DNA of 64,000 nt. It comes from an uncultured Planctomycetota bacterium. GTDB taxonomy: Bacteria > Planctomycetota > Planctomycetia > Gemmatales > Gemmataceae. The notes under the pieces were generated by a model. The model did no database searches. It worked only from the letters and a program-made list of their open reading frames with translations, and was not told the DNA's origin. Each line of letters begins with the position of its first letter. Within the stretch, counting starts at the first letter, position 1. The position numbers were made by a program, and so were the translations under genes. The stretch covers positions 224,001 to 288,000 of the forward strand of contig CAWKHF010000012.1 in assembly GCA_963849325.1 (NCBI GenBank), written 5' to 3'. Shown here piece after piece: positions 3,625-34,782 of the stretch.

Positions 3625-3702
3625 GAGTGGTTTAGCATAACCCGGACCATTCCGGCCCGGCTCGTGTCCTCGCTCCCTTCCTCGAACGGATTGGGGATTG
3701 CC

Positions 3703-3894: not shown

Positions 3895-4033
3895 GGAGAC
3901 TTCTCGTTCTCGCCTGCGACCTTGGTTCCCATGGAGAGGTCTGTTCTTGCTTCGTTGGTCGTGTCCAACCATCCGCAGGGCTGTCGGAGGCTGGCCATCC
4001 GGATCGCCCGAGCGATCCGGCAGGAGTACCGTG

Positions 4034-4438: not shown

Positions 4439-4466
4439 TGCGTTGCGCCTCGCCGGGAGCACGGTC

Positions 4467-14319: not shown

Positions 14320-14718
14320 TCATTGAGTACCTAAGAAGGTTTGGCCCTTAACCATGACATCACTTTTAATGTCGTATTTGTTTCCGGCTAGGTTAGCATT
14401 GAGAATGACCTGGAGGTCCAGACTGTACCGCTCGTTCCTTGCGGTTGCGACTATATTGACATAAAAAGAGATTGATAATGTGTTAATACAAACGAGGCGT
14501 GGATTAGAAGTTTCCACGCCATCGACGAGGCAATTACCTGATCCGATAAACTCGATAAATTCCATGTCTAAGTCGCTGTATTGACGACGAAGCACCCCTA
14601 GCAAGTGCTCACTTAGAAAAGCTCCCAAATCAGGCACGAGGTCCATACGCTCAAGTATCGCATTGATCGCGTCAGCCTTTTCGAAACCCAAAACGGCAGG
14701 TTGATGTGGACTTGTCAT
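14320..14718 (-). CDS. Putative orphan immunity protein (hypothetical)
   Basis: Low-GC ~132-aa ORF (start MTSPHQ, purine-rich RBS) at the distal end of the toxin array. Confidence 0.55.
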   Translation of the reverse strand: MTSPHQPAVLGFEKADAINAILERMDLVPDLGAFLSEHLLGVLRRQYSDLDMEFIEFIGSGNCLVDGVETSNPRLVCINTLSISFYVNIVATARNERYSLDLQVILNANLAGNKYDIKSDVMVKGQTFLGTQ

Positions 14719-14748
14719 GATCTCTTCTTCCTCGCTTGCCAAACCAAG

Positions 14749-15141
14749 CTACAGGGGATTGGCAGAACAAAGGCGTTCTGTAATGTCTCGAAGCTGTGCC
14801 AAACACTCCGCTTCCGTTGAATAGCGACACTCACCTATCTTCGCTACAACATCTTGCCCTACTGCATGGATCCTTCTCACGTCGGCTTCGAGGAGAATGG
14901 CCGTTTCGGTCACGGTGATCTCCAAACACCAACTAACGGCTTCTCCGGAAACCAATTCTACGTCTACGTACTCCTCAAGCCGGTAACTGTCGATTAAGTC
15001 CGGCATTTCAACCACGTGCTTAACCGATCTTACTTCATTAAGCTCACTTAGGTGAATCGCATGGAGCTTGAGCCGGCGGTGGCATTCGCCAATCGCCAGA
15101 AGTAGCGGGAATCCGCGGACATTAATTGAAATCGTGTTCAT
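14749..15141 (-). CDS. Putative immunity protein for the ART-like tip
   Basis: Low-GC acidic ORF (MNTISINVRG) starting 4 nt after the toxin stop. Confidence 0.65.
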   Translation of the reverse strand: MNTISINVRGFPLLLAIGECHRRLKLHAIHLSELNEVRSVKHVVEMPDLIDSYRLEEYVDVELVSGEAVSWCLEITVTETAILLEADVRRIHAVGQDVVAKIGECRYSTEAECLAQLRDITERLCSANPL

Positions 15142-15145
15142 TGTG

Positions 15146-16639
15146 TTATTGAGGGAACTTTCCCGAAGCTCCAGGGCCATAGGGAGGAGTTGGCGGCTTA
15201 GGAATTACTGCGTTTTTGAGAGCGTCTGGCGTCACATTCACCACACTTACATGACCCGGTGGAGTCGTCAAGCTTCCAGGCACTCCATCTGGAATTACCG
15301 ATCCAGGTGGTAGTTTGGAGGTATCAATCGCCATGTAATCCTGGCCGGGACGAAGAACAGGCCGTTGACCACCGAGCGGACCCGGTGTACCCGGTTGAAT
15401 CGGGTTGCTCAATGAATCTCTGAAAGACAAGTGACCGCCGTCTTGAGGACGTGGTGTGAGATTAGACGGGCTGGGCCGCCCCTCTCGATAGATGATCGGT
15501 GGTGTCTCGCCCGTCGCTGGCGGTACTGGAGCGGCGGGTTGACGGCCGCGGAAGAAACTGCGGCCACCCTTAAGGACGACAGGCGCCGCTATCACTGCTG
15601 CCTGAAGAGCGGCATCTCCCAGCATCTGACGCTGCTGCGCTTGCGTCAAGCCCAGATGACGACCCGTCGCCAAGTCCTCTCCCGTCCAACCCGTGTACGC
15701 CGCGCTCACTCCCGTCGCGTCGGCCAAACCGCCCCCCAGCGATTGCAGCACCGACTGACCCTGATTGAAACCACGATCCGCCGCGCTGGACAACGCCGAC
15801 ACCGCCAGCATCCCCATGCCCACCGCGAACAGCACCGGACCAACGCCCGGAACCAACAAGGCCACCGCACCCAAACCTATGCCCGCACCAACCATCGCCA
15901 CCGTCTTCCAACTGGGGAAGTAATCGATGAACGTCTGCCAGCCGCTCTGCGGCGGCGGCGGATTGACCTGGGCGATGACCGGATCGTCCAGCGAACGCAG
16001 GGCATCGGTATCGCGCTGCTGCTGGGCGCTTTGCACGTTGGCGTTGACCTGCTTCTGCACCTGATTGAGCAGCGCCGCCCGCTGCGTGTCGGCCAGGCTA
16101 ATGCTCTGGGTCGTCTGGTCGGCGTTCTTGGCCTGGGCATCGCTGACGGAAGCGTTGACGGCGGCGACGATGGCGGCGGGTGCTGGCGCGACTTCGGCCT
16201 GCACTTGCCCAGCAGCGGCGTCGGCCGCCGCCTGGATGGCGGCATCGGCGGCCGACGCTTTCTGAACAACGCTGTCATGGCCGACGGTGGCCACTTGGGT
16301 ATCATGCGTTTGGGCGGCGCTGGCGTCCTTATCCTGTTGGTTCTTCTGGTCCTGGGCGATCTGATCGTTGCCGCTCTTGACGGCGGCGTCCTGGTTGTGG
16401 GCGGCCTGATCGTCGGAGGCGTCCTGGTTGTGGGCCGCCTGATCGTCGGCGGCGTCCACGGCTTTCTGATCGGCGGCGGTGGGGGCCTCGGTTTTCTCCC
16501 AGGCGTCGGCGGCGTCCTGGTCGGCGTTGGCGTCGGTGACGGCGGCAGTCGCTTCGTCGTTGTCGTGAGCGGCGGCATCGAGCGTGGCGGCGTGCTCGTC
16601 CGCTTGCCAGGTGATGTTTACGGCCGTTAAATACGTCAT
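15146..16639 (-). CDS. Orphan toxin module: truncated stalk + TM + PT-TG-like junction + putative ADP-ribosyltransferase-fold tip, no Hint
   Basis: ~15530-16628 duplicates the carrier 3' region. Unique tip IIYREG..SNLTPRP.D..LSF...IDTSKL...GHVSV. Confidence 0.7.
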   Translation of the reverse strand: MTYLTAVNITWQADEHAATLDAAAHDNDEATAAVTDANADQDAADAWEKTEAPTAADQKAVDAADDQAAHNQDASDDQAAHNQDAAVKSGNDQIAQDQKNQQDKDASAAQTHDTQVATVGHDSVVQKASAADAAIQAAADAAAGQVQAEVAPAPAAIVAAVNASVSDAQAKNADQTTQSISLADTQRAALLNQVQKQVNANVQSAQQQRDTDALRSLDDPVIAQVNPPPPQSGWQTFIDYFPSWKTVAMVGAGIGLGAVALLVPGVGPVLFAVGMGMLAVSALSSAADRGFNQGQSVLQSLGGGLADATGVSAAYTGWTGEDLATGRHLGLTQAQQRQMLGDAALQAAVIAAPVVLKGGRSFFRGRQPAAPVPPATGETPPIIYREGRPSPSNLTPRPQDGGHLSFRDSLSNPIQPGTPGPLGGQRPVLRPGQDYMAIDTSKLPPGSVIPDGVPGSLTTPPGHVSVVNVTPDALKNAVIPKPPTPPYGPGASGKFPQ

Positions 16640-16654
16640 CAGTGGCAGTCTACG

Positions 16655-17050
16655 CTATGATGCGCCCCAACCTGTTCCTTCGCAGATTTCACAGCGTACC
16701 TCATCATTCATACCCGTTCCAAAACAGACCGGACATTGGAACTTTAAGGACTGAAGCCCTCCTTCTATGCCCTGCCCCACAATAAAGACGGCTTTGTGTA
16801 GACACCCGTCTGCGTCGTAGAACTGAACTTCCACACGGCGGGGGTGTTCCACAATACTGACTACTTCAGAGACCTCAGATACCCTGTTGACAAAGTCAAC
16901 TGGGTCGAAGTCGCCTGCCAAAAACGGAGTTAACTTTTGCTTGAAATCCGACGGTTCGCCTCCTTCCGGCTTCGGCCAGATCGCAACAATCTTCCTTAGT
17001 CGCTCAATATAGTTACCAGTGTTTGGCTCCAAGTGGTCGTGCATGGTCAT
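16655..17050 (-). CDS. Putative immunity protein with C-terminal CxxCxGxG zinc-finger pair
   Basis: Low-GC ORF 2 nt after the toxin stop; CPVCFGTG...CEICEGTG. Confidence 0.65.
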   Translation of the reverse strand: MTMHDHLEPNTGNYIERLRKIVAIWPKPEGGEPSDFKQKLTPFLAGDFDPVDFVNRVSEVSEVVSIVEHPRRVEVQFYDADGCLHKAVFIVGQGIEGGLQSLKFQCPVCFGTGMNDEVRCEICEGTGWGAS

Positions 17051-17052
17051 GA

Positions 17053-19817
17053 TTATTTCAAGCTCCCTCCATACTGCTGCAACGCCGCCTCGATTCTTTC
17101 CAGTGCATCTGGCACCTGATCAAGGAACCGGAAACGCGGATCGTTCTTGAACAGGTTGGCTACGTCCTGGACATTACCTCGCGCTGAAGCGGCTTTAGCA
17201 GGCAGCGTCTTACTGAGGATTACATCGATGTTCTTATTCAGTTCAGCGATCTGGGTAGGTGTCAACTTGGCACCGGCAGGTAGAGCCTTGATTCCTTTGA
17301 TGACTTGTGGATCAGGCATCGCTCCCTTTGAACCAGAGGAGCCGGCCTGATGGCCATTGGTGTTATGACTCCAGACGGCGAAGCCCCAATCGTCACCACC
17401 CACGAAATACGTCTGCAACTCCCGCACGCGGAAATTATAGACACGCACCACCGCGCCGGCATCCACCATGTCCTCGACCATCACCGGCTCACCGCTCAGC
17501 GTCTGGATCATATCTCCACGACGCAACGACCACGCCAGCACCCAACCACGACCCGGCACGTAAAACGGATGCTCCCCCGTCGGACGCAACTCCCGACCAC
17601 CCACCGTCAGACGCACCACCGGCGCCAAGCGGACAAACACCTCCTCCACCACCTGCTCCACCACCGCAGCCGACGGATTGTACTGATCGCGGCTGAGGAC
17701 ACGGTCGCCGATCAGGATACGCTCAATCGCCTTGCAGCCGTACAGCAGACGAATCAGCGTCCCCGCCACGAAACAGGCCGTCTGCACCTGCGCCTGCTGA
17801 GCACTACCGGCCTTGCCAGCGTTGCTGCCCGCACTCGACTGCGGCGGCGTCGGCGGCTCGGTCGTCCCCTTCTGCGCCGCCGGCTGACGGCCACGCAGGA
17901 AGGAACGAGCACCGCGGACACCACCGTACAACAGCAATCCCGTCTGAATCGTGCCCTCCGTCAACATCTGACGTTGCTGCGCCGCCGTCAAGCCCAGATG
18001 ACGACCCGTCGCCAGGTCCTCTCCCGTCCAACCCGTGTACGCCGCACTGACCCCCGTGGCATCCGCCAAACCGCCCCCCAGCGATTGCAACACCGTCTGA
18101 CCCTGGTTGAAACCGCGATCCGCCGCGCTGGACAACGACGACACCGCCAGCATCCCCATGCCCACCGCGAACAGCACCGGACCAACGCCCGGAACCAACA
18201 AGGCCACCGCACCCAGACCCACGCCCACACCGACCATCGCCACCGTCTTCCAACTGGGGAAGAAATCGAGGAACGTCTGCCAGCCGCTCTGCGGCGGCGG
18301 CGGATTGACTTGCGCGATCACCAGGTCATCCAGCGAACGCGCCGCATCGATGTCGCGTCCCTGCTGGGCGCTTTGCACGTTGGCGTTGACCTGGTTCTGC
18401 ACTTGCGTGAGTAGCGCCGCCCGCTGTGTGTCGGCCACGTCGATGCTCTTGGCGGTTTGATCGGCGTTTTTGGCTTGGGCATCGCTGAGTGCGGCGTTGA
18501 CGGCGGCGACGAGGGCGGCGGGGGCCGGCGCGACTTCGGCCTGCACTTGCCCAGCAGCGGCGTCGGCCGCCGCCTGGATGGCGGCATCGGCTGCCGACGC
18601 TTTCTGGACGACGCTGTCGTGAGAGACGGTGGCTACCTGCGTATCGTGCGCTTGCGCGGCGTCGGCGTCCTTGTTCTGTTGGTTCTTCTGGTCCTGGGCG
18701 ATCTGATCGTTGCCGCTCTTGACGGCGGCGTCCTGGTTGTGGGCCGCCTGGTCGTCGGCGGCGTCCACGGCTTTCTGGTCGGCAGCGGCGGCGGGGGCCT
18801 CGGTCTTTTCCCAGGCGTCGGCGGCGCCCTGGTCGGCGTTCGCGTCGGTGACGGCGGCTGTCGCTTCATCGTTGTCGTGAGCGGCCGCATCAACGGTGGC
18901 CGCGTGCTCGTCTGCTTGCCAGGCCGTGTCCACCGCCGTCACGTCATCGGCGGCGGCCTGCGCTTCATCGTGGGCGTCGGCCACGGCGGCGTCGGCCTCG
19001 GTCTGGACGGCGACCTGAGCGTTGGCATCTTCGGCGTCGGACTCGGCGTCATCGGCCTTGGCCTCGGCCACCGTCTTGTCCGTCTCGGCGTTGTAGTCGG
19101 CCTCGGCATCAGCCACGTCCGCCGCGGCATCGCTGGCCGTGCCCTGGACCCAGGCGGCCATCTCCACGTCCAGCAAGTGCGCGTAGCGCGTGCCGGTCTG
19201 CTCGGCCCAGCTATGCACGTCGCTGCCGGCGGCCGACAACACGGCATCCACCTGCTGCTGCCACGCCGACATCTCGGCGTTGTTGCAGGCTTCGTTATCT
19301 TGCCGCGCCGCATCCAACGCGGCACTATCGGCAGCCGTGGTCTCTTGATCCCATTGTACGGCGGCGGCCGCATCGGCCAGTTGCTGCTGCTCCCAGGCCG
19401 CATCCACGGTGTCCGTCCAGGCCACGCCTGCCGCGGCATCCGCCTCGTCCTGGGCCACATCGGCGGCGCTGGCCGCGTCGTCCAGGGCCACGCCCGCCGC
19501 CGTCACTGCCGCGATGTACGGCGCATACGCCGCCGCGTTGGTCTGCTCCTCGGCGGAGGTCGCCGCCTCGTAGCTGTCCGTCCACGTCTGCTCGGCGTCG
19601 GCCAGGGCATCGTCGCATTGCTTCTGGGCGTCGGCGATGGCGTCGTCACGCACCTGCGCCGCCGCGTCCACGGTGTCGGCCAACGCCTGATCGGCAGTGG
19701 ACAGGGCGTCGGCCAGCGTCTTCTTGGCCGCCGTCATGCCCTGGTCATAGGTCCGCTCATTGTCGGCCTGAGCGTCGGCCAACGCCTGGTCAGCATCCGC
19801 GGCGGTGTCCAGGCACG
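17053..19817 (-). CDS. Orphan toxin module: truncated stalk + TM + Hint (17362-17775) + unknown ~100-aa helical tip
   Basis: Duplicate of the carrier from ~30340 onwards; Hint motifs CFVAGT, TGEHPFYV, VYNFRV, WSHN. Confidence 0.8.
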
Positions 19818-19830
19818 TAGGATTGGGCCG

Positions 19831-20325
19831 TCACACTTCAACTAGAATTGTCGAAAACCTCTCTTGCACTCCGCTTTCCGTGTTTGCGACGAATGTAAAT
19901 TTCGTCTCCCCAAGGGGTATACAGACTGGGGCGCCTGTCGCACGAAGATCAGATCCAGAAACCGGCTGGTATCTGACTTGATCGAAGGGATGCTCCTGGG
20001 TCGAGAAACCGACAAATACCTTATAACCATCGAGCTGTGGGGTGGTTTCCACAACCTCGATGAAACTCTTGCCATCATAAGACGGGTAGACTGTACCGTA
20101 TTCCGGTGTGGCGAGATCATCTTGATGTTCAGTAGAGAACAGAATCGACCGCAGAACCATGTTCTTGTAAAGGCTCTGGGCAATCTCATCCCAGTCGTCA
20201 TACGCTTCCTCATCCCGCCAAGGAATCCTCCCCCTTTCCATATAAGGAATCAAGGCCACAAGAGCGTCACGAAAATTTAGCATCAGATGGTGGACAGAAG
20301 TAGTCCACCGTTCTCCACCAGCCAT
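19831..20325 (-). CDS. Putative immunity protein
   Basis: Low-GC 164-aa ORF with TAATG overlap on the stop of the upstream toxin tip. Confidence 0.7.
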   Translation of the reverse strand: MAGGERWTTSVHHLMLNFRDALVALIPYMERGRIPWRDEEAYDDWDEIAQSLYKNMVLRSILFSTEHQDDLATPEYGTVYPSYDGKSFIEVVETTPQLDGYKVFVGFSTQEHPFDQVRYQPVSGSDLRATGAPVCIPLGETKFTFVANTESGVQERFSTILVEV

Positions 20326-20912
20326 TAGGAACCTCCGAATAGTTTGTCGATGAAGTCCAATTCTTCTGGTGTAGGAGGCCGCTTCGGCCCAAAACCCTGA
20401 CCGGGGGTAACCGGCTTCACTCGGTCCTTGGTGATGTCAAGGATGACCTGGCCTTTATCGTCCGTGACATAGACACGTCCCTTCGATCCTTTGATCAAAC
20501 TATTCGGGGGACCGGTAAGGTTCTTAACTTGTGAGCCGCTACGGCCACCGCTCAGGGCAGGCAGGTCTGGTCTCGGTGTCGCCCCACCCTGTGGAGCAGG
20601 CGAGCCAGCCTCGTGTCCATTAGTGTTATGGCTCCAGACGGCGAAGCCCCAATCGTCGCCACCCACGAAATACGTCTGCAACTCCCGCACGCGGAAATTA
20701 TAGACGCGCACCACCTCGCCGGTGTCCACCATGTCCTCGACCAGCACCGGCTCGCCGCTCAGCGTCTGAATCACGTCGCCACGACGCAACGACCACGCCA
20801 GCACCCAACCGCGACCCGGCACGTAGAAGGGATGTTCGCCCGTCGGACGCAATTCCCGACCACTCACCGTCAGACGCACCACCGGCGCCAAGCGAACAAA
20901 CACCTCCTCCAC
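20325..20912 (-). pseudogene. Orphan toxin module: 3' part of Hint + unknown ~99-aa basic tip
   Basis: 20620-20910 is nearly identical in DNA to 17357-17650. Tip SGGRSGSQVKNLTGPPNS...GRVYVTDDKGQVILDITKDRVKPV. Confidence 0.75.
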
Positions 20913-21027
20913 TACGGGAGAAAATGATCGAAAAACGTTTAAGGCCTTAATAATATCCTGATTAATTTTATACTTTTACGATGCTTTTTATAAATTTTTT
21001 CCCGTCCTTGATACTTTTCTGGTCATC

Positions 21028-21399
21028 TTATGTCCCAGCATTCTTCTCAGCACGAAATTGCAGCCACCTAGATGCATCAACTTCATCTGCTTCAATAAAA
21101 GGTTCTCGGGGTTCAAAATGATCGAACGGGGAGGATGGCTCGCTTCGGCAGCATGGAACATCGCCGTTCTTGTAGCCAGTAGGTTTCTTTGATTGTAGAA
21201 ACGTACATCCCTCGCTCACGCTTAGATTCCATTCAAATAGCGCGTTGACCCACCACCAGCAATATCGCCTCGGGCATCCAGCCGGAGGAATCTGCGCGGC
21301 CAGAGCTAGGTCACTTTTTGTTAACCCCCGTTCAGCAAGGGAAAGACGGTGTTCGCTCATCGCATTCTCTCCATCTCGATCAAGATTTGCATTATTCAT
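21028..21399 (-). CDS. Putative immunity protein (Cys/Trp-rich)
   Basis: Low-GC 123-aa ORF starting 10 nt after the stop of a toxin-tip remnant. Confidence 0.55.
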   Translation of the reverse strand: MNNANLDRDGENAMSEHRLSLAERGLTKSDLALAAQIPPAGCPRRYCWWWVNALFEWNLSVSEGCTFLQSKKPTGYKNGDVPCCRSEPSSPFDHFEPREPFIEADEVDASRWLQFRAEKNAGT

Positions 21400-21409
21400 C
21401 GTTCAACCC

Positions 21410-21544
21410 TCATGGCAGTAAAGTAGACCCAGGAAAGACAATCTTTCCCCCGATAACACTACCGTCAGGATCGATCCAATAATGCCACTCGACCTGCCGG
21501 CCGGATTCGTCCAGGAATACCTCGAAGACCTTTTGAGTTCCTGG
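21410..21544 (-). pseudogene. C-terminal remnant of a further toxin tip
   Basis: Manual translation PGTQKVFEVFLDESGRQVEWHYWIDPDGSVIGGKIVFPGSTLLP*; open from the MITE edge with no start codon. Confidence 0.55.
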
Positions 21545-21546
21545 CC

Positions 21547-21767
21547 GAATGGCGCTGACTTAAGAAGCAAGTGCTTCTTAAATAAAGACTTAGGACTTTG
21601 ACCTTTCGGTAGGAACAGGTAGAGAACATTTGTTTACTTCTACTCTGCGCCCGATGAATTACGCCGCCCACGGAAGTCGCTGATTGGTTGGCTAGCCGCC
21701 AGAAAGCCGCCCAGGACAACGTAAGGACTGAAAAGGCTTATGTTTGCGCCTTAAGTCAGCGCCATTC
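21547..21767. mobile_element. 221-bp MITE with IS4-type ends
   Basis: Perfect 18-bp IRs gaatggcgctgacttaag / cttaagtcagcgccattc, related to the IS4 IRs at 12762 and 14268; no transposase. Confidence 0.85.
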
Positions 21768-21824
21768 AGTCCCGACCCCCTTTCCGACCCCCTTTCTTCT
21801 CCCCTTTTCTTCTCCGCCTGCTGG

Positions 21825-22214
21825 TCAGTCCTCTTCCCAGGCGATGTTAGCAGGTAAATGCCGCGTCCTGAAGAAATATCTAACGGCTTCACGAGCGGTA
21901 TCAAATGGGATGGCGTGCTGAATGGGGAACTCAGACCATTGGTCCATGAAATGGAAGACAACGGTTCCTTCTCCCGTTAGATCGCCAACGCTGGATAGGT
22001 ACGGCGGTTCGCCTGAACCAGAGACATAATTGAGCACGCTCAAATCCCGGCCAACTCCGATCGCAAGCGATCCACCATTCTCAGGAGCTTCGACGGAGAC
22101 AAGTACAGCTCGGTCGCCCTGGTATTTGGCGTGCAAGTCATCCAACAACGCATCAAGCTCGGATAGCGAGGATATTTCTTTCTCGCCATCCTCTGACCAT
22201 TGCACTTTCCACAT
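21825..22214 (-). CDS. Imm1-family immunity protein (second copy)
   Basis: MWKVQW...LAIGVG...PPYLSS...FHFMDQWSEFP..HAIPFDTAREAVRYFF....P..IAWEE, an Imm1/DddI-like pattern. Confidence 0.75.
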   Translation of the reverse strand: MWKVQWSEDGEKEISSLSELDALLDDLHAKYQGDRAVLVSVEAPENGGSLAIGVGRDLSVLNYVSGSGEPPYLSSVGDLTGEGTVVFHFMDQWSEFPIQHAIPFDTAREAVRYFFRTRHLPANIAWEED

Positions 22215-22245
22215 GGTCACTATAAAGGCAGTCATGAGACAGTTT

Positions 22246-22650
22246 CTAAAACTCCTCCCAAGCAACGGCAGGACTGCGGCCACCCGTTTCCATGAAATAA
22301 GCGATGATTTGGTTTATTCGCTCAGGCGAAAGGCCGTATCGTCTATCGATCGGTGTGGCCGTACCCCCAACCACAAACTCCATGTCGCCGGCATGCGACT
22401 TCACTCCGGTCGGGCTAACTGCCATCCTATATGGAGGGGTTCCGTCGCTAGGGGCGTACTGAACACAACCAATATCAACCCCCAACCCCACTGTCAGAGT
22501 GATACCGTTATCGCCAATCAATTCACACATGAAGGGCGACCTAGAACAGCGCAACTCATTCAGCAAACCAACGATCTGTAGGGGGTTGGTAAAGCTCTCA
22601 TCGTTTCGCGGGTTGTCACGATCTTCCAAGTCCTGAAATGTTACTTTCAT
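22246..22650 (-). CDS. Imm1-family immunity protein, cognate to the deaminase tip
   Basis: MKVTF...LTVGLG...PPY...EFVVGGTATPI..RY.L.......YFMETGGRSPAVAWEE; ATGA overlap with the toxin stop. Confidence 0.8.
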   Translation of the reverse strand: MKVTFQDLEDRDNPRNDESFTNPLQIVGLLNELRCSRSPFMCELIGDNGITLTVGLGVDIGCVQYAPSDGTPPYRMAVSPTGVKSHAGDMEFVVGGTATPIDRRYGLSPERINQIIAYFMETGGRSPAVAWEEF

Positions 22651-25600
22651 CGAGCATTCCCAATAAACAATATGGAGGAGCCATCCGGCAACACGACCGT
22701 CAATCTGCTGCCCGGAGGCAACATGTTTGCGAGATTCTGTTGACAAGGCAGACAAATCTTCGGGTTGTTGATGTGCAGCACGGCCTCTTGAATTCCTTGC
22801 TGCCGCATCAACGCCGAAGCGTGTCCTTCTACATGCGTGGAGGTTATAGCGTTGAATCCGGGGGAAGGCTTTGGCAAGGAAGCCGCTGGTCCCGCCCGTC
22901 CACTCAGCAGGGGCGTATCACCCGCCGCCGTTCGCAGGACGCCAGACGTTTTGCCGCCCGCTACGAATTCGGGCAGCGTTACTCCTTCTCCGCAGTTGTT
23001 GTGGACGAGGACTTGCCCAGTTCCAACGGCATAGCAATGCAGACCCTCCACCTGGAAATTGTACACCTCCTGTCGAACTTGCCGCACCGCCAACCTCGTG
23101 ACCGGCGCTTGCCGACCCGACTTGAGCAGCAGCACGTCTCCCACCTGCAGGTCACCCGCATCCACCCAGCGGCCAGGAACCTTCGCTCCGGCCGGCGTCT
23201 CGGGGACGTGTTCGGGACGTGGCCGCGACTCCAGCCCTTGCCCCTCGATGACCCAGAAGGGGTGTCCGGCTGTCGCCTCGATGATTTCGCCCGCTACGAG
23301 GAGCGCTACCGAATCTCCCTCGTGATCGAACCGATAGGTCTCGACAACTGAGCGGAGCTTCCACTTCTTGGCAACGAGATCGTAGGCCCACACCCGATCT
23401 GACACCCGGATGGTCTCGATCGATTTGAGGCCCTCCGCAGCGGAAATCAAGGTGCCAGCAGGGAAGCAATTGGGGAAGCACCCTGCTTGTCGGGCAGCGG
23501 GAGCGGCCGCTTGGCGACCACGGAGGAAATTACGGCCGCCCTTGATGGCGCCTGGCAACAGCATGGCAGCGATTTGCACGCCGCTCTCTCCCAGCATCTG
23601 ACGTTGTTGCGCGTCGGTCAAGCCCAAATGGCGGCCCGTCGCCAGGTCCTCTCCCGTCCAACCCGTATACGCCGCGCTCACCCCCGTGGCGTCGGCCAGG
23701 CCGCCCCCCAGCGATTGCAGCACCGTCTGACCCTGGTTGAAACCGCGATCCGCCGCGCTGGACAACGACGACACCGCCAGCATTCCCATGCCCACCGCGA
23801 ACAGCACCGGACCAACGCCAGGAACCAACAAGGCCACCGCACCCAGACCTACGCCCACACCAACCATCGCCACCGTCTTCCAACTGGGGAAGAAATCGAT
23901 GAACGTCTGCCAGCCGCTCTGCGGCGGCGGCGGATTGACCTGGGCGATGACCAGATCATCCAGCGAACGCGCCGCATCGGTATCGCGCTGCTGCTGGGCG
24001 CTTTGCACGTTGGTGTTGACCTGGTTCTGCACTTGATTGAGCAGGGCCGCCCGCTGCGTGTCGGCCAGGCTGATGCCCTGGGTCGTCTGATCGGCGTTCT
24101 TGGCCTGGGCATCGCTGACGGCGGCGTTGACGGTGGCGATGATGGCGACGGGTGCCGGCGCGACTTCGGCCTGCACTTGCCCAGCAGCGGCGTCGGCCGC
24201 CGCCTGGATGGCGGCATCGGCTGCCGACGCTTTCTGGACAACGCTGTCGTGAGAGACGGTGGCCACTTGGGTATCATGCGTCTGGGCGGCGTTGGCATCC
24301 TTGGTCTGCTGCGTCTTGCTGGGCTTGGGCGATCTGATCGTTGCCGCTCTTGACGGCGGCGTCCTGGTTGTGGGCCGCCTGGTCGTCGGCGGCGTCCACG
24401 GCTTTCTGGTCGGCAGCGGCGGCGGGGGCCTCGGTCTTTTCCCAGGCGTCGGCGGCGTCCTGATCGGCGTTGGCGTCGGTGACGGCGGCAGTGGCTTCAT
24501 CGTTGTCGTGAGCGGCCGCATCAACGGTGGCCGCGTGCTCATCCGCTTGCCAGGCGCTGTCCACCGCCGTCACGTCGTCGGCGGCGGCCTGCACTTCATC
24601 ATGGGCGTCGGCCACGGCGGCGTCGGCCTCGGTCTTGACGGCGACCTGAGCGTTGGCATCTTCGGCGTCGGACTCGGCGTCGTCGGCCTTGGCCTCGGCC
24701 ACCGTCTTGTCCGTCTCGGCGTTGTAGTCGGCCTCGGCATCAGCCACGTCCGCCGCGGCATCGCTGGCCGTGCCCTGGACCCAGGCGGCCATTTCCACGT
24801 CCAGCAGATGGGCGTAGCGTGTGCCGGTCTGCTCGGCCCAGCTATGCACGTCGCTGCCGGCGGCCGACAATACCGTGTCCACCTGGCTCTGCCACGCCGC
24901 CATCTCCGCGTTATCGCAGGCTTCGTTGTCCTGCCGGGCCGTGTCCAACGCCGTGCTGTCGGCCGTGGACGTATCCGCGTCCCACTGCTCGGCGGCGGCG
25001 GCATCCGCCAGTTGCTGCTGCTCCCAGGCGGCATCCACGGTATCGGTCCAGGCCACGCCGGAGGCGGCGTCGGCTTCGTCCTGGGTCACGTCGGCGGCGC
25101 TGACCGCATCATCCAGAGCCACGCCCGCCGCCGTCACCGCCGCGATGTACGGCGCGTAGGCCGCCGCGTTGGTCTGCTCCTCGGCGGAGGCCGCCGCCTC
25201 GTAGCTGTCCGTCCACGTCTGCTCGGCGTCGGCCAGGGCATCGTCGCATTGCTTCTGGGCGTCGGCGATGGTGTCGTCGCGCACCTGCGCCGCCGCGTCC
25301 ACGGTGTCGGCCAAATCCTGATCGGCGGCGGACAGGGCATCCGCCAGCGTCTGCTTGGCCGCGGTCATGCCGTCGTCATAGGTCAGTTCGTTATCAGCCT
25401 GTGTGTCGGCCAACGTCTGCCCGGCGTCGGCGGCACTGTCCAGGTACGCCTGCAGAGCTTGCGCCTTGGCCGTTTGCAGGTCGGCCAACGGCTGGGCCAG
25501 GGCCTTGGTGTAGCCGGCGTTGGCGTCGTTGACGGCGTTGTTATAGACTTGGCGGGCGTTGGCATAGGCATCGTACTTGGTCTTCTCGATGGCGTTGGTC

Positions 25601-27294
25601 GCGCTTTGCTGCACCATCTGAGCGGTGCCGTCGGCCGTGACCTGCGTAATGGAGGCATCGTCCCGGGCCAGCAGGTAGGTCTGCTGCGCCTGTCGCAACT
25701 CGTTGGTTACGGCCTGGGCGGCATTGGGATCGCCGCTCTTCTCGGCGTTGTTATAGTCGGTTTGATATTGGCCATTGACGAAGTTCCAGTAAGTGGCGGC
25801 GGCGGCCTGGACGGTCTTGTTGTAGGCCGCCAGGTCTTTATTGAGGGCGCTGACGTAGTTGGCCTGAGTCGATTGACGCGAGCTGGCGTACTGCTGGTCC
25901 ACCGGATTGGTGGTCTGGATGAACTGATTGGCGGCGGCCTGACGCGCTGCGGAGGCGGCCTGTTGAGCAGCTTGGTCGGCGGCATCGTAGGCGTTCTGGG
26001 CGGTGGTGAGGGCAGTGTCGCGGATGCCACTGGCATTCTGGATGGTGTTGTTGTAGTCGTTCTGGGCGTTGCTATTGGCCTGGTCGAAGTCGCTTTGCAG
26101 TTGGTTGGTCTGATCGTTGTAGGCGTTTTGGGCGTCGGAGATGGCGGTGTTGTAGTCGTCTTCGGCCTGGCCCTGGACGGTGTCGTAGGTGTCGTTGGCT
26201 TGTTGGGTGGCCTGGTCGCTGGCGGCCTGGGCGGTGGTGGCGGCATCGTCGTAGGCAGAGTCGGCGGCGTCCTCGGCGTTTTGTCGGTCTTGGGCCGACT
26301 GGTTGGTGGCGTCGCTGTAGGTCTGGTCGGCGGCGGCGATGGCTTGACCGTAAGCCGTTTGCGCAGCGGCGACGGTTTGGTCGTGGGTGGCTTGGTTGGC
26401 GGCGAGGGCGTTGTTGTAGTCCTGGTCAGCCTGGTCCTGAGCCGCCTGCTCGGTGGCCGCGTCGGTGGCGACGGTCTGGTTGTAGGTGGTATCGGCGGTG
26501 TCGTAGGCGTTTTGCAGGTTGGCCTGCACGGTGTTCATCTGGTCGTTGAGCGTGTTCTCCGCCTGCTGATTGGCGGCATCATCGGCGGTCTGGGCGTTCT
26601 GTGTGGCGGCCTGGACGTTGGGGTCTTGCGAGAAGTCGGGCACGGTGGTGGCGGCCTGGTCGTCGGGTCCGTTGGCGTAATCGGCCTCGGCGGCGTTGGC
26701 GGCCTGGTCGAAGGCGGCCTGGTTCTGATCGCCGCTGGTCTGGGCGGCGGCGTCGGCTTGCGTCTCGGTCGCCGTGGCGGCTGACTCGGCGTCGGCGTCG
26801 GTCTGGGCGAGCTGCTGCTGCGCTTGCTGGTCCGCTTGCTGATTGGCCTGGTCAGCGTTGTCGAGGACGTTCTGCAAGGTCTGTTGATCGGCGGCATCGC
26901 GGCTGGTGTTGGCGGCGTCGGCGGCGGTGCTGCTGTCGTCGAGGGCTTGTTGCAGGGTGCTGGTCTGGTCGCTCAGTTGTTGATCGTCGGTCTGGGTGCG
27001 ATTCTGGTAGGCGGTGTCGGCGGTGTTGGTGCTGGCCTCGTCGGTGGCGTCGGCGGCGGCCTTGACGGTGTTATAGGTATCGTTGGCCGTGTCCACGCTG
27101 GTGTTGTACTGCTGGTCGGAGGCGTCGGCGGCGGTGTTGTACTGAGCGACGGCGGCTTGGGTGTCGGTGGCGAGCTGAGTGGCGTCGTCCTGGGTGGCTT
27201 GGTTGTAGGCGTCGTCGGCGGCTTGCGTGGCGGCGTCGGCGGCGGTGTTGTCGTTGGCCAGCGTTTGCGTGAAGTTCTGGGCAGGCTGAGGCAT
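22647..27294 (-). CDS. Orphan toxin module: long stalk copy + TM + Hint (22998-23468) + SCP1.201/DddA-like deaminase (22647-22997); frameshift near 24320
   Basis: Duplicate of the carrier from ~32173. Hint CFPAGT...TAGHPFWV...VYNFQV...VHN; deaminase HVEGH...INNP.IC.PC...MLPPG..LTVV.P.G...F.GN. Confidence 0.88.
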
Positions 27295-27311
27295 TAGCGG
27301 GCTATGAGCAT

Positions 27312-27926
27312 CTACCATCCTGTAAGGAGCTGCCCTTCCAGGATTTCGTAACCTTCCGCAATCACCTCGATGTAGCTGTCATGCCCAAGAATCAAATAAT
27401 GCCTCCACTTCCGATATCTGTCCTGCGCCGCTCCCGTTTCATCGAGCCAAGGGGACAATTCAACCTCATAAATCGACGGATCAGGACAGATGCCCGATTG
27501 TTGCCAGGAGTCACGAGTTTGCTGCAAATGCTTGAGTATGTCCTCTCCAGGTGTCCAACTTCCGGTGACTTGCGACCAATCAAACAGGGATTCATCGATG
27601 ACTTCCTTATCCGAATGAGAAGGGCACATTCTCGACCATATACCACTCTTGAAAACGAACCGCAGAAGGCGATACGGCCCCTTCTGGCTGGAATTCGCCA
27701 GTTGGAAGGTACTTGGCGGTTGAACAACTAGAACGCCTGATGACGAAGATACCGATACATCCTCACAGTGGTAATATGCGACAAAATCCACATGGGTTTC
27801 ACCTTGCGAGGAACATTCGGTTGCCACGAGGCGAAGAAACGGCGTTGATGGTGATACCATCCAGGGCACCTGTATCGGCATCAGGATTGGTTTTTGCACT
27901 CTTGTACTTGGCATGGTGTTCCTCAT
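27312..27926 (-). CDS. Putative immunity protein for the primary toxin tip
   Basis: Low-GC 204-aa ORF with TAATG overlap on the carrier stop. Confidence 0.7.
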   Translation of the reverse strand: MRNTMPSTRVQKPILMPIQVPWMVSPSTPFLRLVATECSSQGETHVDFVAYYHCEDVSVSSSSGVLVVQPPSTFQLANSSQKGPYRLLRFVFKSGIWSRMCPSHSDKEVIDESLFDWSQVTGSWTPGEDILKHLQQTRDSWQQSGICPDPSIYEVELSPWLDETGAAQDRYRKWRHYLILGHDSYIEVIAEGYEILEGQLLTGW

Positions 27927-30900
27927 TAGGGAAGTTCAATCACTCGCAGCACAGTAAGGTCCGTCTGGCTTGGCGTCACCGGCACCCGCGGTCCTGGCAG
28001 CGGGGCATCCGGGATGATAGGCGGTTCTTTCAGTCGTGCAAGCAAACGCCGCGTCGAGTCGATAATTTTGATGTTTGTCGGCTTCATCCCTGCCTCGCTG
28101 AGTGCTGCCAGTGAACGAGTGTTGGCCGACACGAGGGCCCATCAGCCATCTTGAAAGCTTCAATTGGCAACTGATCCGGCGTCATTTTTCCCGCACGCAA
28201 GTCAGCAGCCACATCACTAATTAGTCTCCCAGCAAGTTCTGGCGGCCGGCCTTTCGTACCAAATGTTGGCCCAACACGTTTCTGCCCGAACAACGGCCCT
28301 GCCGCTGACTGGGAAGCAGGCGGCACCACTGGCGCCGGCGTGACCGGAGCCGGCTTTGGACCACCCGGTGCGGCAGGGGGCGGAGCGGGCGGCTTGGGCG
28401 CGGCAGGCTGGCGGCCGCGGAGGAAATTGCGCCCACCCTTGACAGCGACGGGCAAAAGCAGGGCCGCCACCTGCAGGCCCGTCTCTCCCAGCATCTGACG
28501 TTGCTGGGCGGGCGTCAAGCCCAGATGACGACCCGTCGCCAAGTCCTCTCCCGTCCAACCCGTGTACGCCCGCTCACCCCCGTCGCGTCGGCCAGGCCGC
28601 CCCCAAGCGATTGCAACACCGACTGACCCTGGTTGAAACCGCGATCCGCCGCGCTGGACAACGCCGACACCGCCAGCATCCCCATGCCAATGGCAAACAG
28701 CACCGGACCGGCGCCCGGAATCAACAACGCCACCGCACCCAGACCCACGCCCGCACCAACCATCGCCACCGTCTTCCAACTGGGGAAGAAATCGATGAAC
28801 GTCTGCCAGCCGCTCTGCGGCGGCGGCGGATTGACCTGGGCGATGACCAGATCATCCAGCGAACGCGCCGCATCGATGTCGCGGCCTTGTTGGGCACTTT
28901 GCACGTTGGCGTTGACCTGGTTCTGCACTTGATTGAGCAGGGCCGCCCGCTGCGTGTCGGCCAGGCTGATGCTCTGGGTCGTCTGGTCGGCGTTCTTGGC
29001 CTGGGCATCGCTGACGGCGGCGTTGACGGCGCCGATGATGGCGGCGGGTGCCGGCGCGACTTCGGCCTGCACTTGCCCAGCAGCGGCGTCGGCCGCCGCC
29101 TGGATGGCGGCATCGGCCGCCGACGCTTTCTGGACGACGCTGTCGTGAGAGACGGTGGCCACCTGGGTATCATGCGTCTGGGCGGCGCTGGTATCCTTGT
29201 CTTGCTGCCTTTTTGGTCCTGAGCGAGTTGGTCACTGCCGCTCTTGACGGCGGCGTCCTGGTCGTGGGCCGCTTGATCGTCAGCGGCGTCCACGGCTTTC
29301 TGATCGGACGCGGCAGCGGGGGCCTCGGTCTTCTCCCATGTGTTGGCGGCGTCCTGATCGGCGTTAGCGTCGGCGACAGCGGCAGCGGCTTCATCGTTAT
29401 CGTGAGCGGCGGCATCGAGCGTGGCCGCGTGCTCGTCCGCTTGCCAAGCCGTATCCACGGCCGTTACCTCATCGGCGGCCGCCTGCACCTCGTCATGCGT
29501 ATCGGCCACTGCGGCCTCTGCCTCCGTTTTGACGGCCGCTTGAGCGTTGCTGGCCTCGGCGTTGCTCTCGGCATCCTCGGCCTTGGCCTCGGCTACGGTC
29601 TTGTCTGTCTCGGCGTTGAAGTCGGCGTCCGTATCCGCGACGTCGGCCGCGGCGTCGGACTCGGTGCCCTGGACCCAGGCAGCCATTTCCACGTCCAGCA
29701 AGTGGGCGTAGCGAGTCCCCGATTGCTCGGCCCAATTATGCAGGGCATCGCTCTGGACAGACAACACCGCATCCACTTGCTGCTGCCATGCCGCCATCTC
29801 CGTATTATTGCAGTCCTCGACAGCCGTACGGGCCGCATCGAGAGCGACGCTGTCGGCCGTGGCCGTATCCGCGTCCCACTGCTCGGCGGCGGCCGCATCC
29901 GCGAGTTGCTGGGTCTCCCAGGCGGCATCCACCGCATCCGTCCAGGCCACGCCGGAGGCGGCGTCGGCTTCGTCCTGGGCCACGTCGGCGGCGGTGACGG
30001 AGTCGTCCAACGTCACACCCGCCGCCGTCACCGCCGCGATGTACGGCGCATACGCCGCCGCGTTGGTCTGCTCCTCGGCGGAGGCCGCCGCCTCGTAGCT
30101 GTCCGTCCACGTCTGCTCGGCGTCGGCCAGGGCATCGTCGCATTGCTTCTGGGCGTCGGCGATGGTGTCGTCGCGCACCTGCGCCGCCGCGTCCACGGTG
30201 TCGGCCAACGCCTGATCGGCAGCGGACAGGGCATCGGCCAGCGTCTGCTTGGCCGCGGTCATGCCGTCGTCATAGGTCAATTCGTTATCAGCCTGTGTGT
30301 CGGCCAACGTCTGCCCGGCGTCGGCGGCCGTGTCCAGGTACGCCTGCAGAGCTTGCGCCTTGGCCGTTTGCAGGTCGGCCAGCGGCTGGGCCAGCGCCTT
30401 GGTGTAGCCGGCGTTGGCGTCGTTGACGGCGTTGTTATAGGTTTGGCGAGCGTTGGCGTAGGCATCGTACTTGGTCTTCTCGATGGCGTTGGTCGCGGTC
30501 TGCTGCACCATCTGGGCGGCGCCGTCGGCGGTGACCTGCTTGATGTAGGCGTCGTCTCGGGCCAGCAGGTAGGTCTGCTGCGCCTGCCGCAGCTCCTTGG
30601 TCACGGCCAGACCGGCATTGGGATCGTTGCTCTGCTCGGCGTTGTTATAGTCGGTCTGATATTGGCCATCGGCGAAGTTCCAGTATGTGGCCGCGGCTGC
30701 CTTGACGGCCGTGTTGTAGTTCGCCAGGTCTTTGTTGAGGGCACTGACGTAATCGGCCTGGGTGGACTGACGGGCTTTGGCGTATTGCGCGTCCACCGGG
30801 TTGGTGGTCTGGATGAACTGCTGGGTGGCGGCTTGCCGCGCCGCCGAGGCGGCCTGCTGAGCGGCCTGGTCGGCGGCGTCGTAGATGCCCTGGGCCTTGG

Positions 30901-33731
30901 TGATAGCGGCGTCGCGGTCGTTGCCGGCGTCCTGGACAACGCTGTTGTAGTCGTTCTGGGCGTTGCTATTGGCCTGGTCGAAGGCGCTTTGCAGTTGGTT
31001 GGTCTGATCGTTGTAGGCGTTTTGGGCGTCGGAGATGGCGGTGTTGTAGTCGTCCTCGGCCTGGCCCTGGACGGTGTTGTAGGTGTCGTTGGCTTGTTGG
31101 GTGGCCTGGTCGCTGGTGGCCTGGGCGGCGGTGGCGGCATCGTCGTAGGCAGAGTCGGCGGCGTCCTCGGCGGTCTGCCGGTCTTGGGCCGACTGGTTGG
31201 TGGCATCGGTGTAGGTTTGGCCGGCGGCGGCGACGGCTTGATCGTAAGCCGTTTGCGCAGCGGCGACAGTTTGGTCGTGGCTGGTCTGGTTGGCGGCGAG
31301 GGCGTTGTTGTAATCCTGGTCGGCCTGGTCCTGAGCCGCCTGCTCGGTGGCCGCGTCGCTGGCGACGGTCTGGTTGTAGGTGTTATCGGCGGTGTCGTAG
31401 GCGTTTTGCAGGTTGGCCTGGACGGTGTTCATCTGGTCGTTGAGGGTGGCCTCGGCCTGCTGATTGGCGGCATCGTCGGCGGTCTGGGCGGACTGCGTGG
31501 CGGCCTGAACGTTGGGATCCTGGGAGAAGTCGGGCACGGTGGTGGCGGCTTGGTCGTCCGGGCCGTTGGCGTAGTCGGCCTCGGCGGCGTTGGCGGCCTG
31601 GTCGAAGGTGGCCTGGTTCTGATCGCCGCTGGTCTGGGCAGCGGCGTCGGCTTGCGTCTCGGTCGCCGTGGCGGCGGACTCGGCGTCGGCGTCGGTCTGG
31701 GCGAGTTGCTGCTGCGCTTGCTGGTCCGCTTGCTGCTCGGCTTGGTCGGCGTTGTCGAGGGCGTTCTGCAAGGTCTGCTGATCGGCGGCATCGCGGCTGG
31801 TGTTGGCGGCGTCGGCGGCGGTGCTGCTGTCGTCGAGGGCTTGCTGCAGGGTGCTGGTCTGGTCGCTCAGTTGTTGATCGTCGCTCTGGGTGCGATTCTG
31901 GTAGGCGGTGTCGGCGGCGTTGGTGCTGGCCTCGTCGGTGGCGTCGGCGTCGGCCTTGACGGTGTTATAGGTATCGTTGGCCGTGTCCACGCTGGTGTTG
32001 TACTGCTGGTCGGAGGAGTCGGCGGCGGTGTTGTACTGAGCGACGGCGGCTTGGGTGTCGGTGGCGAGCTGAGTGGCGTCGTCCTGGGTGGCTTGGTTGT
32101 AGGCGTCGTCGGCGGCTTGCGTGGCGGCGTCGGCGGCGGTGTTGTCGTTGGCCAGCGTTTGCGTGAAGTTCTGGTCGGCGGTTTGTCCGCTGGTCTGGTA
32201 GCCCTGATCGATGCTGCTTTCCTGTTGGCTAAGGTTGTCGTTGAGGGCGGAGATGGTCTGCTGCTCTTGCTGATCGTCGGCAGCGGCGTCGTTGGTGAGG
32301 GTTTGCTGATCGTTCTGGACTTCCTGGATCACGGTGGGATCACTGGAGAACGTCATCGACCTCGGTAGAGCCGTAGTCGGTGGGGTCGGACTGACCAGGG
32401 TCGGGCGGACCATACAGATCCAGCGTCTCCGTGCCATCGGATGAATCGGAGGAATCGGTGGCGTCTGCTGTGCCCGCCGTGGTGTTATCGGCGGCGCTGC
32501 TGTCCGCGGGCGTCGAGGAGGCGGGGTCGGTGCCATCGGTTGAATCGCTGGAGTCGGCGAGGGACATCGGCGCCATCGTGGATGTTCCCGCCGCGGCGGA
32601 GGATGCCGAGGTCTTGCCGGCCTTGGGGTCGGTGGTCGAAGTGGGGACGGCGGGCGGGTCGCCGATAGCTGCCGAGTGGGGCGTCGGCGGCGGCAGGAGA
32701 GCGGGGCTGGCGGTGGGAGGCAGCGTAGTGGTGTGCGCCGGCGTGCCTTGAGGCAGGCGAGGCAGGCTTGAGCCAGTAGGAGCCGGAGTGTTGGCCCCGC
32801 GCACATCGGCGATGACCTGCGTCAGTCCAGACAATGCCTGGCTACTTTTCGTGGGCGGAGGTGGCAGGGTGAAGGCGGGCAGGGCGTGGTTGGCCGCCGG
32901 GCTGGAGGGGGTCGGACTGGTCTGGCTCTGGGTCGGACTGGTATTGGCCTGGCTGCTGCTGTTGAGAGCAACCGTGGCCGGCGTCGAAGGTGCGGCGTTG
33001 GCGCCATTCTGGGCCAGCAGGGTGTTCCAGTTCGGATTGCTGCCTCCTCCTCCTCCACCGCCTCCGCCGCTACCGCCGCCGGCGTTGGGCGTGCTGCTGC
33101 CGCCGGGACCGCCACCGCCGCCGGTGTCATTGTTAGGGTTGGACGGCGGTGCCGATGGAGGCGGCGAAGAGGACCGTGTGGGAGGCGGCGTCAAGGCAAG
33201 GTCTGTATCATCCGTCAGCGTCGGAGCGAAGGAGAGCGGCTGGGTGCTGCTGCTGGTGTTGTCGGTCGATGGGTTCTCCTGCTCAGGCGTGGAGGTGGCG
33301 GATTGGTCAGCTGCCGCCGGCTGTTTCAGGAGCAGCCAGGTCCAATAGTCCGGCGCGGACGAGGTCGAGGCGAGGTCCACCCCGGCGTCGGCGTTTTCTT
33401 GCGGCGGTAGTGAGACCGCAACGATGTCGGCATCCGCGTTGACTTCCGCATTCGCCGTCGGCGTTGGCTGAGAGGTGGCCAGCATGGGCGGGGGCGGGGC
33501 CAAGTTCGCCAGGCTCGACAGGAGTAACGGTGTGATGGCTTCGCCGGGCAGATCGCGCGAGGACAACGGCTCCAGCATCGGCCGCGAGGACCGCCGAGAC
33601 GTGGGGATGGCAGCGCGCCGCAGTCGTGGGCGATGACAGGTTTGCCGCAGGGCTTGATACAAATGAGTCGTAGTCCGTCCAACGTGCCAGATGGCCAGAC
33701 GCATCCAGCGACAACGCTGTCTCGGAGGCAT
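27926..33731 (-). CDS. Full-length polymorphic toxin carrier (~1,900 aa); four apparent frameshifts near 32350, 29212, 28570 and 28138
   Basis: Joins ORFs 32340..33731, 28721..32806, 28515..29162, 28084..28779 and 27926..28132. The breaks at 29212 and 28570 read through in the orphan copies. Order: RPMLEPLSSRDLP, S/T/P/G linker, A/D/Q/T stalk, hydrophobic segment, TGEDLATG, ParB-like tip. Confidence 0.8.
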
Positions 33732-33821
33732 GAAAGATCCTCTCCGCGGCTGTGCGGTGATCGTTAGGCCGCGATCGTCTTCGTCACCCGTTCAACTGAC
33801 CTGTCTTGGACACAGGGGAGG

Positions 33822-33880
33822 ATTCTAGGTGCGCCGAAGATTACTGTCTAGTAATAAATTACATTTTCGCAAGAAAATTC
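33822..33880 (-). promoter_or_regulatory. Sigma70-type promoter of the toxin array with AT-rich UP element
   Basis: Minus strand TAGACA (33850-33845)-N17-TAGAAT (33827-33822); AT-rich tract 33851-33880. Confidence 0.65.
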
Positions 33881-34655: not shown

Positions 34656-34661
34656 TGGCTC

Positions 34662-34782
34662 CCCAAAGAGCCTCACGCCAAGGCGCAAAGAACGCAAAGG
34701 AAAAGAGAAGGAAGACCCAAGTGACGCGCGCTTATTTTATCTTTCTTTGCGTTCTTTGCGCCTTGGCGTGAGGCTCTTTGGG
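34662..34782. repeat. REP-like palindrome (cgcaaag family)
   Basis: cccaaagagcctcacgccaaggcgcaaagaacgcaaag with its reverse complement; similar element at 38787-38896. Confidence 0.8.

Follow-up and report, generated by a model that had tools for sequence, protein, structure and literature searches.

Among described polymorphic toxins, the plan of a leader, an alpha-helical stalk, a HINT domain and a toxin was already laid out by Zhang et al. 2012 (PMC3482391), and Becerra Soto et al. 2026 (PMC13483458) presented PT-TG/PT-HINT groups with such a plan; the parts of the latter paper at hand do not mention planctomycetes. Here we report a repeated gene family that occupies positions 14320-33731 of a 64,000-nucleotide (nt) stretch, hereafter the window, of an uncultured Gemmataceae bacterium (Planctomycetota; GenBank assembly GCA_963849325.1, contig CAWKHF010000012.1, positions 224,001 to 288,000). 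All parts of the family lie on the minus strand, and its members share carrier sequence and end in unrelated tips, each followed by a small gene. The locus is real, well formed and rare, and we consider it very likely to be a polymorphic toxin locus through which a Gemmataceae-type planctomycete acts against other bacteria.

The locus is like the HINT toxins on helical stalks (the ALF-repeat/PT-TG/PT-HINT group), which, as far as these sources describe them, combine a leader, a long stalk, a hydrophobic segment, a pre-toxin domain, HINT, a variable toxin and an immunity gene. The HINT proteins of Streptomyces that a search of a large protein collection retrieved are alike in having 1,100-1,200 residues without a Pfam match, an Ala content of 24-30% and a hydrophobic segment that precedes HINT by 50-70 residues. 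However, comparison with the HINT-type helical-stalk toxins gave no sequence match outside HINT (query coverage 12-28%), and the carrier had no ALF hit at E <= 10. The actinobacterial HINT toxins from this search, some of which have a Sec signal, share the plan but have an Ala-rich stalk with a 7/14-residue repeat, whereas the carrier reported here is acidic, has a high content of Gln and Thr, repeats every 11 residues and has an N-terminus that is not a Sec-type signal peptide. The gene arrangement resembles that of Rhs, CdiA and MafB systems, in which a complete gene and its immunity gene precede 5'-truncated cassettes, each of a tip and an immunity gene, that retain upstream homology for recombination. 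Unlike Rhs, no RHS_repeat hit was found in any open reading frame (ORF) of the window; unlike CdiA, no two-partner secretion (TPS)/haemagglutinin hit was found in the carrier (Pfam, NCBIfam) or in 23 neighbouring ORFs; and unlike MafB, the carrier has no MafB-N domain. The original prediction, made from the sequence without database searches, was right that the carrier has no RHS, haemagglutinin, LXG, PAAR or VgrG signature, to which TPS, WXG and ALF can be added (Pfam, NCBIfam). Its suggestion of an undescribed class did not hold, since the toxin-presenting end consists of described modules and the plan appears in the available parts of PMC3482391 and PMC13483458. The locus adds an unannotated family of stalks to a class that is already known; it does not found a new class, and its value is therefore incremental.

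The array comprises one full-length gene (copy A), three 5'-truncated copies (B, C and D) and one remnant (E), where four truncated copies and a remnant had been predicted. The copies and the main parts of copy A are as follows.

27926-33731, minus strand: copy A, the only full-length carrier, ~1,935 codons; leader, linker rich in Pro, Ser, Thr and Gly, stalk, transmembrane hairpin, TG-like domain and tip A, with no HINT
32340-33731, minus strand: N-terminal ORF of copy A, 463 residues
29170-32338, minus strand: acidic alpha-helical stalk of copy A, 1,046 residues analysed
22647-27318, minus strand: copy B, 5'-truncated, with one frameshift near 24300-24540; stalk, transmembrane hairpin, TG-like domain, PT-HINT and DddA-like deaminase tip
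20325-20912, minus strand: remnant E, the 3' part of HINT (45.2 bits) and tip E
17053-19782, minus strand: copy C, an intact 909-residue frame; stalk end, transmembrane hairpin (18124-18252), TG-like domain (17920-18114), PT-HINT (17362-17757) and a helical tip
15146-16639, minus strand: copy D, an intact 497-residue frame; stalk end, transmembrane hairpin, TG-like domain and tip D, with no HINT

Self-blastn bore out the single orientation of the array and the predicted conservation of sequence upstream of the tips, with 86-91% nucleotide identity between copies. Positions 23491-27280 of B matched 28386-32174 of A (90.2% over 3,800 nt), 17962-19817 of C matched 23592-25448 of B (90.9%), 15615-16627 of D matched 23587-24570 of B (88.7%), and 20587-20912 of remnant E matched the HINT part of C at 17324-17649 (90.8%). 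The upstream ATG at 33731 is reached by copy A alone. The ratio of nonsynonymous to synonymous substitution rates (dN/dS) between copies was 0.13-0.29 at dS 0.13-0.63, so that the shared parts diverged as working coding sequence, under purifying selection.

The tips and the small genes that follow them are listed below.

27926-28401, minus strand: tip A, in two frames (105 and 68 residues), no family match
27312-27926, minus strand: putative immunity gene for tip A, 204 residues, GC 0.50, TAATG overlap
22998-23468, minus strand: HINT of copy B, PT-HINT at 61.6 bits, with the Cys start and HN end kept
22674-22958, minus strand: tip B, a DddA-like (SCP1.201-type) deaminase at 59.7 bits, with HVE and CLPC motifs
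22246-22653, minus strand: Imm1 immunity gene a, 28.8 bits, ATGA overlap with tip B
21825-22235, minus strand: second Imm1 immunity gene (b), 69.4 bits, matching gene a at E 6.9e-8
21028-21399, minus strand: low-GC ORF of 123 residues (GC at third codon positions 0.42) with several Cys and Trp, no family match
19831-20325, minus strand: putative immunity gene for tip E, 164 residues, TAATG overlap
16655-17050, minus strand: putative immunity gene for tip C, 131 residues, a CxxC...CxxC zinc ribbon, starting 2 nt past the tip
14749-15141, minus strand: putative immunity gene for tip D, 130 residues, starting 4 nt past the tip
14320-14718, minus strand: second small low-GC gene after tip D, 132 residues, ORF GC 0.45

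The five tips are mutually unrelated, with no pair below E 0.2 in BLASTP. Six unrelated tips had been predicted; the unrelatedness stands and the number does not, as a frameshift cuts copy B into two ORFs and the sixth is most simply, and probably, the tail of B read out of frame. The predicted tight coupling of each tip to a low-GC small gene was found at all five, through a TAATG overlap (A and E), an ATGA overlap (B), a 2-nt gap (C) or a 4-nt gap (D), and the small genes have a GC content of 45-52% against 64.9% for the genome. Matches were judged against the Pfam cut-offs for PT-HINT (PF07591, 27.7 bits), DddA-like (PF14428, 25 bits), Imm1 (PF14430, 22.4 bits) and PT-TG (PF14449, 23.5 bits). 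PT-HINT scored above its cut-off in B (61.6 bits), C (62.2 bits) and E (45.2 bits) and was found in neither A nor D; in translation, the HINT domains of the array keep the Cys start and HN end. Tip B belongs to the DddA-like family by both its score and its HxE and CxxC zinc motifs, and the two genes behind it both exceed the Imm1 cut-off. In this it is like the DddA-DddI / SCP1.201 deaminase systems with Imm1, from which it differs in the carrier beneath its predicted deaminase. By position, an immunity gene lies downstream of every tip (5/5); by family, this can be said only of the two Imm1 genes behind tip B. The ORF at 21028-21399, which sits between the Imm1 pair and remnant E with no tip ahead of it, and the gene at 14320-14718 are possibly orphan immunity genes.

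Imm1 is paired with SCP1.201 deaminases, planctomycetes included, in the part of Zhang et al. 2012 (PMC3482391) at hand. With PT-HINT, a DddA-like tip and an Imm1 pair at one locus, and with this pairing on record, the polymorphic-toxin reading is secure. The features that mark polymorphic toxins in that part of the survey are all found here, namely variable C-termini, coupled downstream genes and orphan cassettes. The predicted toxin-immunity system with orphan cassettes is therefore upheld by the known families, the variability of the tips and the coupled small genes. Four tips and at least five small genes belong to no family and are candidates for new toxin-immunity pairs. Comparisons with the ESM Atlas gave weak leads for two of these tips, with tip D resembling Tox-ART-HYD1 (0.90, 115 shared features) and tip E resembling Ntox33 (0.82); Pfam confirmed neither. 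A ParB-like identity considered for tip A had no support from any search and was dropped.

Relatives of the locus are few. The carrier and PT-HINT were confined to this locus in the 8.16-Mb assembly, and a stalk/hairpin query found relatives in 2 of 40 related genomes, both within the 10 of the same genus. A profile of the shared pre-toxin module, described below, found 1 of 400 other genomes across the phylum, with seven candidates scored per genome. Scans of public contigs yielded 11 metagenome loci, and the genome collections yielded two, one in a Gemmataceae metagenome-assembled genome (MAG) and one a weak hairpin-only match in an Armatimonadaceae MAG. From a large protein collection we obtained five stalk-sharing metagenome proteins (P0002-P0006) and P0158; the other 35 hits of the search that yielded P0002-P0006 matched HINT only. 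These searches found no second full-length, leader-bearing copy: proteins of 812-2,315 residues included no match to the N-terminal 150 residues at E <= 0.001, and among proteins of 748-2,382 residues the N-terminal half of the stalk matched only P0158, which is itself 5'-truncated.

Whether the C-termini of homologues vary had been proposed as a check on the toxin reading, and they do: P0002-P0006 and P0158 each have a different end after a conserved FLRGR linker, and homologues diverge just past this linker or just past HINT. A similar array was found on a metagenome contig of 10,154 nt (L028), where truncation of the cassettes falls at the hairpin, at the TG motif or at HINT. Its DddA-like tip and Imm1 gene are near-identical to those of copy B, which suggests that whole tip and immunity cassettes move between loci. 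The modular anatomy, the known families (PT-HINT, DddA-like and Imm1) and the variability of the tips, the last in paralogues and homologues alike, are thus observed directly.

In front of the tips, the copies share a module with a fixed order, from the stalk end through an NPPPPQS motif, a hydrophobic hairpin and a TG-like stretch to the FLRGR linker, past which lie HINT and a tip (B, C and E) or a tip directly (A and D). The hairpin is glycine-rich, with two helices and a PGxGP turn (about residues 511-553 of copy C), and the TG-like part is conserved around GGxADxTG...YxGxTxxDLATGxHL. A profile built from an eight-sequence alignment of this module (A2) matched 117 representative proteins at E <= 1e-3, of which 41 reached E <= 1e-10. 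Pfam scanning of 30 of the longer hits found RHS repeats (6), eCIS_core (2) and Big_5 (2) upstream of the module, and PT-HINT in 5, with Ntox28, Tox-MPTase5, WHH or GH-E at the end of others. Among the 93 module hits shorter than ~1,000 residues, 12 contained PT-HINT, and AHH, Tox-GHH, REase-5, REase-7, colicin DNase, NucA/B, EC869-like, HicA, TNT and DddA-like domains each occurred once. The module is a promiscuous pre-toxin unit, largely invisible to current models; largely missed by Pfam, it links RHS, eCIS_core and helical-stalk carriers. In an AlphaFold2 model of copy D, made with the alignment of the 93 sequences, the module (residues 267-358) had block means of the predicted local distance difference test of 66-92, mostly above 73. 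A Foldseek search with this model found nothing in the PDB at E <= 0.001; the best matches, pore domains of NaK channels, were not significant (E 0.39).

The carrier, i.e. the leader, linker and stalk, is the new part of the locus; it lacks Pfam and NCBIfam matches and has few relatives. The stalk of copy A is 26% Ala, 14% Asp, 13% Gln and 10% Thr, with an 11-residue periodicity (z = 4.0, 3.5, 3.1 and 3.5 at lags 11, 22, 33 and 44) and a hydrophobic period of 3.66 residues. AlphaFold2 placed in it helices of 60-127 residues with short breaks between them; at a predicted template modelling score of 0.27, the packing of these helices was not modelled reliably. At 0.15 nm per residue, we estimate that such a stalk would make a fibre of ~150 nm. 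No named family was found for the stalk in Pfam at E <= 10 or in NCBIfam at E <= 0.1, and its 1,050 residues matched no ALF repeat family at E <= 10. A wide search with VIA-align returned only generic coiled coils (Z <= 8.4), within the range of noise for long helices, and barely covered the hairpin/TG part. Ahead of the stalk, the N-terminus of copy A has a basic-rich stretch ending in RPMLEPLSSRDLP, a leader that is LEPR-XLL-like but degenerate, and then a low-complexity linker of ~400 residues rich in Pro, Ser, Thr and Gly.

From these parts we propose how the locus may work. Copy A would be the expressed gene, with a basic-rich, non-classical leader of the LEPR-XLL type of this lineage and a disordered linker of ~400 residues. 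The acidic, ~1,050-residue stalk of 11-residue repeats would hold the toxin away from the cell, and beyond it would come the glycine-rich, two-helix transmembrane hairpin, the PT-TG-like domain and the toxin tip. In HINT-bearing copies, self-cleavage would free the tip, and the gene directly downstream of the tip would protect the producer. The truncated copies would be stored cassettes, and recombination in the conserved stalk, hairpin or HINT could bring one of these tips, together with its immunity gene, into the expressed gene in exchange. The export route, surface display, membrane insertion of the hairpin, cleavage, toxicity of the four tips without a family, and cassette switching are only inferred. 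A bolder version, which we consider doubtful, is that the hairpin and TG-loop domain form a self-contained, widely shared and database-unnamed membrane-entry device, possibly an oligomeric channel, that inserts in the target membrane and passes the tip across, and that rides here on a new fibre of acidic 11-residue repeats exported by an uncharacterised LEPR-XLL route.

Several results weigh against the proposal of a working toxin locus with an exported carrier. Copy A is not open as assembled, with two frame breaks demonstrated by comparison with its paralogues and two inferred, so that no leader-bearing toxin can be made from it. Tips A, C, D and E and their neighbouring genes had no Pfam or NCBIfam family match. 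No secretion partner gene was seen beside the locus, and nothing CdiB- or MafA-like was present among the 23 neighbouring ORFs scanned. The NCBIfam LEPR-XLL model (NF012209, cut-off 17 bits) had no hit at E <= 10 in the first 100 residues of the carrier; of five typical leaders of the same genome, this model hit three and scored one above its cut-off. A profile built from 28 leaders of this genome aligned with residues 25-62 of the carrier, which is the right place, but at 8.6 bits the match was not significant genome-wide. It should be noted that the leader motif of the carrier was noticed before it was tested. The LEPR-XLL-type leader is therefore a weak lead, not a result, based on pattern-level likeness. 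For the TG-like domain, PT-TG had no match at this locus at E <= 1, matched 1 of the 8 module sequences (E 0.025), and matched 7 of the 93 wider relatives below its cut-off, at best with 21.1 against 23.5 bits. These seven matches fall on the stretch of the TG-like part, and the module is probably distantly related to PT-TG, with a transmembrane hairpin ahead of that part, although the curated cut-off does not admit it to the family.

The frame breaks bear directly on an alternative that we regard as possible, if rather unlikely: that the array is a decaying relic in which real frameshifts have killed the full-length gene, and in which only the immunity genes may still matter, against the toxins of neighbours. 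Copy A is read in five ORFs (32340-33731, 28721-32806, 28515-29162, 28084-28779 and 27926-28132), so that the predicted gene of ~1,900 residues stands as a full-length copy but not as one open frame. Compared with the intact copies C and D, it is one base short near 29150 and again near 28527; we infer further breaks near 32345 and near 28125, the latter inside the tip, which puts the frameshifts of copy A at three or four. Copy B has one extra base at the equivalent of the site near 29150, again judged against C and D, and is split into ORFs 24274-27318 and 22647-24542. A plot of GC by codon position agrees with frame switches near 32400 and 29200. These breaks, four in A and one in B, favour decay, as do the split DDE transposase at the end of the array and the absence of such breaks among the 23 ORFs scanned outside it. 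So does a metagenome relative (L033) whose positions 3098-4478 read the stalk in three frames, so that the frame must change twice within 1.4 kb; this assembly is thus not alone in having a broken stalk. On the other hand, the frames between the breaks are clean, with 1,056 and 1,003 codons without a stop. Together with the dN/dS of 0.13-0.29, they mean that any decay must be very recent, or that the lesions are artefacts. The assembly, in 14 contigs at 84.7% completeness, is compatible with a long-read assembly carrying indel errors, and repeats that are ~90% alike are prone to polishing errors.

The break near 32345 could instead mark the border between two genes, one for a 463-residue leader and linker protein and the next for a separate, leaderless stalk-toxin protein. 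An in-frame ATG (MTFSSDPTV...), with a GAGG ahead of it, does lie 17 nt before the stop of the first ORF, and no paralogue reaches ~32345, so that an error at this break is not proven. However, the other breaks of copy A are clear frameshifts when set against the paralogues, and the second protein would have no visible export signal. We therefore judge this arrangement distinctly unlikely.

It is more unlikely still that the toxin travels as the cargo of a contractile injection system and not as a surface-displayed fibre. Contig C4 of the genome does encode a sheath as well as an eCIS_core protein, and two distant hairpin/TG relatives, P0124 and P0125, carry an N-terminal eCIS_core. However, Pfam found no eCIS_core, PAAR or VgrG domain in the carrier, the injection-system genes sit on a different contig, and HINT never occurs with type VI secretion system (T6SS) or Photorhabdus virulence cassette (PVC)-type export in the account of Zhang et al. 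2012 (PMC3482391), as far as it is at hand. A search of the genome (84.7% complete) did not find VipB, a T6SS protein. The carrier is also like the eCIS_core (DUF4157) group P0089, P0094, P0096, P0124 and P0125, retrieved by the module profile, in which, P0125 apart, an 11-residue helical stalk and a transmembrane hairpin come before a TG-like domain and a toxin. Unlike the carrier, none of this group has HINT, and the profile match of the group is limited to the stalk end, the hairpin and the TG part. Only P0124 and P0125 exceed the eCIS_core cut-off; P0089, P0094 and P0096 are grouped by the likeness of their stalk and hairpin, and P0125 is known from the Pfam scan alone, not from stalk or hairpin analysis. 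Separately, the eCIS_core protein on C4 (113 bits) and a phage-type sheath match lie ~6.5 kb apart at ~511875-518828, a pair which hints at such an injection system in another part of the genome. Last, a surface or structural coiled-coil family with variable non-toxin ends is extremely improbable: the protein is mostly generic long helix, VIA-align aligned it with coiled coils alone and four tips lack a family, but a DddA-like deaminase with Imm1, PT-HINT, small genes linked to the tips and the orphan layout all contradict it.

As the polymorphic toxin locus that we favour, the array provides a worked case, for Planctomycetota, of antagonism through contact or secretion; our literature search found no paper characterising toxin delivery in this phylum, and none on the export route of proteins with LEPR-XLL-type leaders. 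In the same genome, at least 28 long ORFs open with a basic-rich stretch followed by LExLExRxxP/L, several of them clustered on contig C5 and others on C2 and C1, and the profile from 28 of these leaders found 69 ORFs at E <= 0.022. They look like a large family of proteins with LEPR-XLL-type leaders.

Beyond the array, two neighbouring genes were annotated. The DDE_Tnp_1 transposase, directly at the 3' end of the array (window positions 12775-14215, minus strand), is split over two overlapping frames, with profile positions 1-107 in ORF 13427-14215 and 118-200 in ORF 12775-13569. Upstream of the array, the gene at 33963-34697 (minus strand) belongs to the MgtC family (128.9 bits), has an MgtC/SapB C-terminal domain and shows no apparent tie to the toxin system.

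The start of copy A, the ATG at 33731, is preceded by the ribosome-binding site GGAGAGGA and, further upstream, by the following site.

33822-33850, minus strand: best sigma-70-like match in the region, TAGACA-17-TAGAAT, 10 of 12 positions, upstream of the ATG at 33731

A single promoter had been predicted. A good sigma-70-like site does lie upstream of copy A, but the region has 10 promoter-like sites (3.7 ± 2.1 in shuffled sequences), so the site at 33850-33822 is not the sole candidate. An inverted repeat with 6-bp arms and a 4-nt spacer (~33841-33856, minus strand) overlaps the -35-like hexamer of this best match and could be an operator.

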